64,000 nt of DNA from Escherichia coli (GTDB lineage: Bacteria > Pseudomonadota > Gammaproteobacteria > Enterobacterales > Enterobacteriaceae). The notes under the pieces are model-generated. The model saw only the letters and a list, made by a program, of their open reading frames with translations. It was not told where the DNA came from and did not search any database. Each line of letters starts with the position of its first letter. Positions within the stretch are counted from its first letter, which is position 1. This document shows, in pieces, positions 45,629 to 45,666 of the stretch. Position numbers and translations under genes: made by a program. The DNA lies in assembly GCF_003334405.1 (NCBI RefSeq), contig NZ_QOWM01000004.1; one strand, 5' to 3'.

Positions 45629-45666
45629 AAAAAACTAATCCGCAATAAGAATGCGGATTAGTTTTT
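45629..45666. other. perfect 10-bp hairpin flanked by A6 and T5 in the far-upstream ompF regulatory region
   Basis: Stem ctaatccgca / tgcggattag (45635..45661) with loop ataagaa, A6 on the 5' side and T5 on the 3' side. Confidence 0.5.

Follow-up and report, generated by a model that had tools for sequence, protein, structure and literature searches.

In the allele carried by the Escherichia coli stretch analysed here (64,000 nucleotides, hereafter the window), which is that of K-12, the hairpin between ompF and asnS is best explained, with a probability of about 0.5, as a Rho-independent terminator-type element able to act in both directions, an auxiliary stop and not a conserved regulator, whose activity is incidental and dispensable. 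Its most plausible role would be to halt, as a second fail-safe, polymerase heading for the ompF regulatory region and, weakly, to end antisense transcripts. The hairpin is a genuine and statistically exceptional palindrome; otherwise it appears to be an ordinary intrinsic-terminator-like structure, with no sign of selection on the structure itself.

The genes ompF (44122-45210) and asnS (45812-47212) both lie on the minus strand, and the region between them is 99.8% identical to that of K-12 MG1655, with a single indel, located in the ompF 5' UTR. NC_000913.3 coordinates are obtained by adding 941773 to window positions above 45236, which places the hairpin at 987403-987439; the MG1655 RefSeq record has no annotated feature within the ompF-asnS intergenic region. 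The preliminary description had reported a perfect 10-bp hairpin here, and the structure is indeed present at those positions, with longer arms: perfect 15-nt arms (45630-45644 and 45652-45666) enclose a 7-nt loop, the arms being composed of the 10-bp core CTAATCCGCA/TGCGGATTAG and five further A:T pairs drawn from the flanking A6 (45629-45634) and T5 (45662-45666). On the plus strand the left arm reads AAAAACTAATCCGCA (core 45635-45644, A-tract 45629-45634) and is invariant in all E. coli alleles examined, the loop (45645-45651) reads ATAAGAA, and the right arm reads TGCGGATTAGTTTTT, with E. coli polymorphisms at 45653, 45655, 45657 and 45661. The distances given earlier hold as well, at 420-456 bp to the ompF ATG (45210) and 146 bp to the asnS stop (45812), as does the position beyond the asnS-proximal terminator, which is found at 45776-45799, 110 bp away.

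This is the longest perfect inverted repeat of the 64-kb window. One stem of at least 15 pairs is present, compared with 0.00 in dinucleotide shuffles (n=40), and five of at least 11 pairs, compared with 0.07; among the four other perfect stems of at least 11 pairs are two confirmed gene-end terminators, those of ompF (44069-44096) and pepN (51469-51498). The predicted RNA folds at -19.7 kcal/mol on the plus strand and -20.2 kcal/mol on the minus strand (z = -6.4 and -7.0, with 0 of 200 shuffles folding equally well), and within longer transcripts the stem probability is about 1.0 on both strands. The sequence occurs once in the window and at a median of one place per E. coli genome; identity as a REP/BIME, ERIC or mobile repeat was rejected on this single-copy occurrence. 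Against Rfam, the only hits were at chance level, miRNA models among them, and scored far under the gathering thresholds.

Termination potential was evaluated with a d'Aubenton-Carafa-type score, d, combining hairpin energy per nucleotide with a weighted T-tract, and with the asnS and ompF terminators as internal controls; because modern energy parameters were used, the zero threshold of d is approximate. The core, a 10-bp stem with five G:C pairs (dG -13.3 kcal/mol on the plus strand and -14.2 on the minus strand), is a stem-loop of intrinsic-terminator grade, and it is followed by U6 on the minus strand and U5 on the plus strand, within tails having terminator-type U-tracts on the minus strand (UUUUUUCUU, nT 4.81) and, marginally, on the plus strand (UUUUUGCG, nT 3.73). 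For the K-12-type allele d is +21.3 on the minus strand and -1.5 on the plus strand, and the minus-strand controls score +52.8 (asnS) and +32.7 (ompF). From these scores and tails, the K-12-type allele is predicted to be a credible terminator for RNA polymerase moving from asnS towards ompF, but only a marginal one for transcription the other way. The suggestion of a bidirectional intrinsic terminator thus stands for this allele as regards anatomy, a stable hairpin with U6 on one strand and U5 on the other, while the plus-strand score is only borderline. Termination efficiency may nevertheless be low, since the stem base beside the U-tract is A/U-rich and the plus-strand tail is only U5 followed by GCG. 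A simple terminator scan skipped the hairpin because its A and T tracts pair and were counted as stem.

In its stable stem-loop, preceding A-tract and immediately following U-tract on both strands, the element resembles known intrinsic and bidirectional terminators, and the ompF terminator (AAAAAACAGGAC...GTCCTGTTTTTT, 44069-44096), likewise flanked by symmetric A6/T6, is alike in anatomy and size. Unlike such terminators, it is not at a gene end but between co-directional genes, 110 bp past the asnS terminator, and G+C makes up only 50% of its stem, whose base is A/U-rich and which shows no compensatory conservation. The asnS intrinsic terminator itself (minus strand, AAGAGCCAGCG..CGCTGGCTCTT followed by T8) shares the intergenic region, the strand direction and a similar hairpin energy (-17.8 kcal/mol, compared with -20 for the hairpin) but differs in being 100% paired in 11 genera, with seven double-sided compensatory changes and a d of +53, none of which applies to the hairpin; it serves as the positive control for the comparisons below.

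How the preferred reading would operate can be outlined from these features. RNA polymerase that escapes the asnS terminator would transcribe arm, loop and arm on the minus strand; with the A:U pairs lengthening it, the 10-bp stem (about -14 kcal/mol) would fold in the RNA exit channel with a weak U6:dA6 hybrid in the active site. The minus-strand RNA would then be released at about 45624-45628, within the predicted release site for RNA from the asnS side (45624-45629, TTTTTTCTTAG after the stem), before the polymerase would enter the region looped between the OmpR sites F4 and F1-F3. Weak antisense or divergent plus-strand transcripts originating in the ompF control region would come off, at lower efficiency (U5), at about 45665-45668, in the predicted plus-strand release site (45662-45668, reading TTTTTGC here and TTTTTTGT in most strains and genera), which lies just upstream of a promoter with a transcription start site (TSS) at 45698. 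The only minus-strand RNA polymerase known to arrive at the hairpin consists of escapees from the strong asnS terminator.

Published 3'-end data were searched at the positions expected for such release (987397-987402 on the minus strand, 987438-987443 on the plus strand). In the curated Term-seq tables of Adams et al. 2021, the interval 987300-987499 has no 3' end on either strand; this is weak evidence, since the same tables also omit the asnS terminator. The TERMITe and SMRT-Cappable-seq supplements gave no match at all, although those files may not cover the locus.

The perfect palindrome is a minority form within the species. Exact 67-mers around the hairpin, counted in 5,425 E. coli genomes, are far more polymorphic than the remaining intergenic region. 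The perfect K-12-type allele (right arm and tail TGCGGATTAGTTTTTGC on the plus strand) accounts for 1341 genomes (25%), the L082-type allele (TGCGGGTTATTTTTTGT), the commonest sampled, for 1848 (34%), the B2/Nissle-type (TGCAGATTATTTTTTGT) for 1011 (19%) and the strain-142-type (TGCGGATTATTTTTTGT) for 82 (1.5%). All alleles examined keep the left arm and loop and change only in the right arm and tail, so that the mismatches of the common non-K-12-type alleles are confined to one arm. Fold energies on the plus and minus strands are -20.3 and -21.2 kcal/mol for the K-12-type, -15.7 and -10.1 for the L082-type, -16.2 and -16.5 for the strain-142-type and -11.0 and -6.4 for E. albertii; rarer alleles are more disrupted, that of 1008S19 (TCCAGG) reaching only -6.3 and -3.8. 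In the same strand order, d is +5.0 and -46.7 for the L082-type, +7.3 and -18.4 for the strain-142-type, -16.7 and -28.1 for the B2/Nissle-type, and -20.2 and -53.3 for E. albertii, so that the L082-type, B2 and E. albertii versions have no terminator-like score on the minus strand (-47, -28 and -53).

Two bases, G45661 and C45668, occur only in the K-12-type allele among the 11 genera or alleles compared and are therefore taken as derived; both raise complementarity. By our reading of these alignments, an older, imperfect quasi-palindrome was perfected recently and in one lineage, through the substitutions at 45661 and 45668. Quasi-palindrome correction by template switching during replication would likewise increase complementarity at both positions but in one tract would also have turned G45667 into T, whereas the K-12-type allele keeps G45667. 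A single template-switch event was rejected on this ground and on the existence of the intermediate strain-142-type allele, and stepwise point mutation is therefore sufficient.

It is unlikely that this history amounts to nothing but drift, that is, that the element is an inactive, neutral quasi-palindrome that became perfect in one lineage. Such a view would draw on the minority frequency, the lack of covariation and of mapped 3' ends, and the naturally disrupted 1008S19 allele (-6.3 and -3.8 kcal/mol); RNA polymerase would nevertheless hardly ignore a hairpin of -20 kcal/mol with U6 behind it, and on the minus strand its d (+21) comes near the +33 of the functional ompF terminator. At the other extreme, the perfect allele might be a natural regulatory polymorphism, in which the two derived substitutions create an asnS-to-ompF terminator or insulator and also alter the -35 region of a strong antisense promoter starting in F4. 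This is improbable; were it true, far-upstream ompF control (F4 occupancy, looping and read-through) would differ between K-12 and most E. coli lineages, and nearly all ompF regulation has been worked out in K-12.

Comparison across genera, using asnS-linked loci from one genome per species, bears on whether the structure itself has been maintained. The asnS-to-porin intergenic region falls into two size classes, about 600 bp in Enterobacteriaceae (E. albertii, Citrobacter, Pseudocitrobacter, Phytobacter, Leclercia, Kluyvera and Enterobacter spp.) and about 300 bp in Erwiniaceae, Pectobacteriaceae and Yersiniaceae, and the far-upstream half with its F4-like TGTTAC...ATTTC motif is specific to Enterobacteriaceae (loci L002-L024 and L071). 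This agrees with the report that Yersinia lacks F4 and shows no high-osmolarity repression of ompF (PMC3050692). Within the 600-bp class, in which the hairpin region was aligned, that region is alignable and conserved in sequence (consensus GCACAAAAAATAAnCnnCAnTCTTATTGCGnATTAG, ompF sense), with peaks at 45641-45650 (CGCAATAAGA, comprising the upper left arm and the loop) and over the T-tract and following G (45662-45667). The pairing does not follow: E. albertii and the other genera retain the sequence block and not the pairing, and outside E. coli a perfect stem of 8 bp or more was seen at this position in none of the species, while the asnS terminator hairpin is present in nearly all.

Formal counts point the same way. 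For the hairpin, 77.3% of cells are paired on the minus strand, a value reached by 405 of 500 shuffles (covariation 0.047, shuffled mean 0.068), and 81.8% on the plus strand, reached by 80 of 500 (covariation 0.124, shuffled mean 0.103); for the asnS terminator in 11 genera all cells are paired (100%), no shuffle of 500 reaches this, covariation is 0.279 (shuffled mean 0.143) and seven cells show double-sided compensatory changes. No compensatory change beyond shuffles was found for the hairpin in these relatives, and its pairing is no better than column composition predicts; with pair counts at shuffle level, the structure is therefore not under detectable selection.

A conserved or important insulating role, as had been proposed for the hairpin in shielding ompF from asnS read-through, is accordingly not borne out: the perfect form is present in only 25% of the 5,425 genomes, the L082-type allele has a minus-strand d of -47, pairing is at shuffle level without covariation in genera whose asnS terminator is 100% paired, and, as a weak negative given that the asnS terminator is also unlisted, Adams et al. 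2021 list no 3' end there. Because the primary sequence (one arm, the loop and the T/A tract) is conserved across genera and the pairing is not, the terminator activity is, on comparative evidence, most likely incidental and dispensable.

This same pattern raises the alternative that the primary DNA sequence is what is constrained and the hairpin irrelevant, the constrained element being a candidate protein site (ompF-sense TCTTATTGCG), an A-tract bend aiding the F4 to F1-F3 loop, or both. Positions 45641-45650 and the A/T tract at 45662-45667 are near-invariant across 11 genera and the pairing partner is variable, which is the opposite of what is expected of a terminator.

The setting is also suggestive. 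We take the ompF TSS to be at about 45319, from a 110-nt 5' UTR; F1 (TTTACTTTTGGTTAC) then falls at -100 to -86, consistent with this placement, and the hairpin occupies -311 to -347. F4, the distal OmpR site, is reported to lie at -380 to -361 (Bergstrom 1998, Huang 1994), and a motif match on the minus strand is found at 45681-45700, with the core GTTACGGAATATTAC as a direct repeat at 45685-45699 (-380 to -366). The distal edge of F1 is at 45419, and 260 bp beyond it lies about 45680, in agreement with the motif. The published placement of F4 is 260 bp upstream of F1-F3 (PMC3050692). With F4 so placed, the hairpin lies 14 bp to its promoter-proximal side and thus inside the DNA looped between F4 and F1-F3, in the far-upstream half that, F4 included, is confined to Enterobacteriaceae, which matches the published lack of F4 in Yersinia.

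The alternative nonetheless remains a doubtful one, since the known motifs of OmpR, IHF, CRP and CpxR are unmatched, a highly degenerate Fis-like pattern being the only resemblance, and intergenic conservation by itself identifies no binder. Specifically, scanning for OmpR, IHF, CRP and CpxR consensus sequences gave no match within 45629-45666. Of the earlier suggestion that F4 and IHF sites would lie close by, the F4 part is upheld (14 bp away) and the IHF part is not, IHF-like sites being located elsewhere, at 45484-45496 (-177 to -165) and 45375-45387 (-68 to -56). A protein-binding palindrome, also suggested earlier, was rejected: none of these four consensus sequences is matched, and conservation extends to one arm and the loop but not to the dyad symmetry. 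The element shares with the OmpR F4/IHF repression loop its location in the looped DNA, 14 bp from F4 and in an Enterobacteriaceae-only segment, but has neither an OmpR or IHF consensus nor conserved symmetry. Even so, the conserved sequence (TCTTATTGCG and the A/T tract beside F4), as a candidate site read from alignment, is a more interesting lead than the hairpin.

Several other sequences were observed in this control region. A CRP-like site, TGTGAACACCGTCATA, with one mismatch to TGTGA-N6-TCACA, is found at 45433-45448 (-129 to -114). Two further blocks are near-invariant across genera, TGTGCTA on the plus strand (45613-45619) and GGCnATCC(G/A)GAcG in the ompF sense (45580-45593), and no known motif could be assigned to either.

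Transcription from the ompF side is relevant to a further alternative, in which the selected function is that of a plus-strand terminator for antisense or divergent noncoding RNAs, possibly C0240, shielding the TSS-45698 promoter and asnS. Cappable-seq places plus-strand TSSs (scores in brackets) at 45318 (22.9), 45349 (2.0) and 45377 (2.3), and further on at 45629 (2.7) and 45698 (74.5), then at 45715 and 45748 (PMC4782308, supplement 1, in U00096.2 coordinates). RNAs from the first three would run into the hairpin, and with asnS upstream on the minus strand transcription can reach it from either side, a point that also favours the preferred reading. The flanking genes are co-directional, and only these weak starts would converge there with asnS read-through. 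Arrays have also reported a plus-strand transcript, or small ORF C0240, in the ompF-asnS intergenic region (PMC3082872). The upstream starts and this transcript would favour a plus-strand function, as would the conservation of the plus-strand T-tract and following G (TTTTTTG), which are among the best-conserved bases across genera. The right-arm A-to-G or C-to-T changes of the L082-type and E. albertii versions also keep G.U pairs in the plus-strand RNA and leave C x A mismatches on the minus strand, so that plus-strand values exceed minus-strand ones (L082-type dG -15.7 compared with -10.1 and d +5.0 compared with -46.7; E. albertii dG -11.0 compared with -6.4).

The B2/Nissle allele (19%), however, is reversed, with C x A on the plus strand and G.U on the minus strand; together with the formal counts it led to rejection of consistent plus-strand RNA selection through G.U pairs, at which the L082-type and E. 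albertii had hinted. The plus-strand d is moreover only borderline (-1.5 to +7), and it is negative in B2 and E. albertii, and neither plus-strand pairing nor covariation exceeds shuffles (80/500 and 87/500). No plus-strand 3' end is listed near 987440, one being listed further on, at 987644 (window 45871; Adams et al. 2021). Among the upstream TSSs there are only weak ones and one that might be an artefact, and no TSS accompanies the promoter predicted at 45471-45500. A selected plus-strand terminator is, on balance, rather unlikely. That predicted promoter (TTTACA-18-TATGAT, from a pattern scan) was itself rejected as a feed into the hairpin, there being no Cappable-seq TSS near 45507. The TSS at 45318, the strongest of those upstream of the hairpin, and the very strong ompF TSS of the opposite strand are 1 nt apart. 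Either two divergent promoters stand face to face here, or the signal at 45318 is a strand artefact caused by the great abundance of the ompF mRNA, a doubt that also weighs against the preferred reading. The sequence TGcTATTAG (45615-45623) resembles an extended -10 element for the weak TSS at 45629.

Downstream of the hairpin, the plus-strand promoter at 45686-45698 (-10 TAATAT at 45686-45691, Cappable-seq TSS 45698) lies inside F4, and its start is the strongest plus-strand TSS among the intergenic sites listed (74.5; PMC4782308). Competition is to be expected between OmpR-P bound to F4 and RNA polymerase bound to this promoter. The plus-strand U-tract of the hairpin (45662-45668) overlaps the -35 region, so that the right arm and T-tract might be mainly the -35/upstream region of this promoter and the palindrome its by-product. 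The good -10 element agrees with this, the -35 window (45662-45670) consists of the T-tract and GCG, and the K-12-specific substitutions at 45661 and 45668 fall in that window. Yet the -35 match is poor (TTGCGC or TTGTGC, 3/6), and the -10 T residues at 45686 and 45691 are not conserved across genera, the conserved bases being those of the OmpR half-site; the promoter therefore seems Escherichia-specific and the T-tract broadly conserved. As it also explains neither the left arm nor the loop, this explanation is considered very unlikely.

The start at 45698 and the listed 3' end at 45871, which follows a GTACGTG...CACGTAC hairpin and UUUU, predict a plus-strand RNA of about 174 nt. Such an RNA would extend across the asnS terminator, would overlap the final 60 nt of asnS in antisense, and may correspond to C0240. 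The interval from the asnS terminator to F4 also contains a tandem 21-nt direct repeat (45724-45765, CAAATAGATTGCTTGACTTAA / CAAACAGATAACTTGACAGAA, 76% identical), each copy of which has a TTGAC(T/A) -35-like hexamer on the plus strand, with the weak plus-strand TSSs 45715 and 45748 nearby.

A small plus-strand open reading frame overlaps the hairpin (45542-45661; 39 amino acids from ATG, or 42 from TTG at 45533), its TAG stop lying in the right arm. It was rejected as a gene: loss of the stop lengthens the frame to 48 amino acids in the L082-type and B2 alleles, the strain-142-type has only 8, E. albertii has no ATG there, and no Shine-Dalgarno sequence or NCBIfam match was found.

Under the preferred reading of an auxiliary, incidental terminator, the hairpin is of some practical consequence. 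ompF serves as a textbook case of two-component control; how its far-upstream region works, F4 and looping included, is still vague. A terminator-grade hairpin lying 14 bp from F4 in K-12, and not in most E. coli, calls for caution with ompF reporter constructs, and bears on the reading of deletions around -310 to -350 and on the extrapolation of K-12 results to other strains.

Rearrangements of the region were seen in a few strains. The clinical isolate CH10508 (locus L092) has lost 333 bp (45227-45559), and with them the promoter and 5' UTR of ompF, F1-F3 and the two IHF-like sites; the hairpin and F4 are still present, and ompF is probably silenced. In GF60 (loci L088/L094), IS200C is inserted at 45628|45629, right after the hairpin and T6 on the minus strand (...GCGGATTAGTTTTTT|GTGCACAG...); ompF is retained, and F4 and the hairpin are shifted about 710 bp from F1-F3. 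In 366_BP0076 (locus L090) the junction is 3 nt further on (...TTTTTTCTT|) and ompF is gone, the order being aspC-IS200C-asnS. Four genomes in all have an IS200C junction at the hairpin. The insertion right after the hairpin and T6 was counted in favour of the terminator-type reading. In EC1515 (locus L095) the same IS200C end abuts a different terminator-type hairpin and T6 near dusA; as the insertions upstream of ompF and near dusA both abut a hairpin followed by T6, it is suggested that IS200C targets the 3' foot of terminator-type hairpins.
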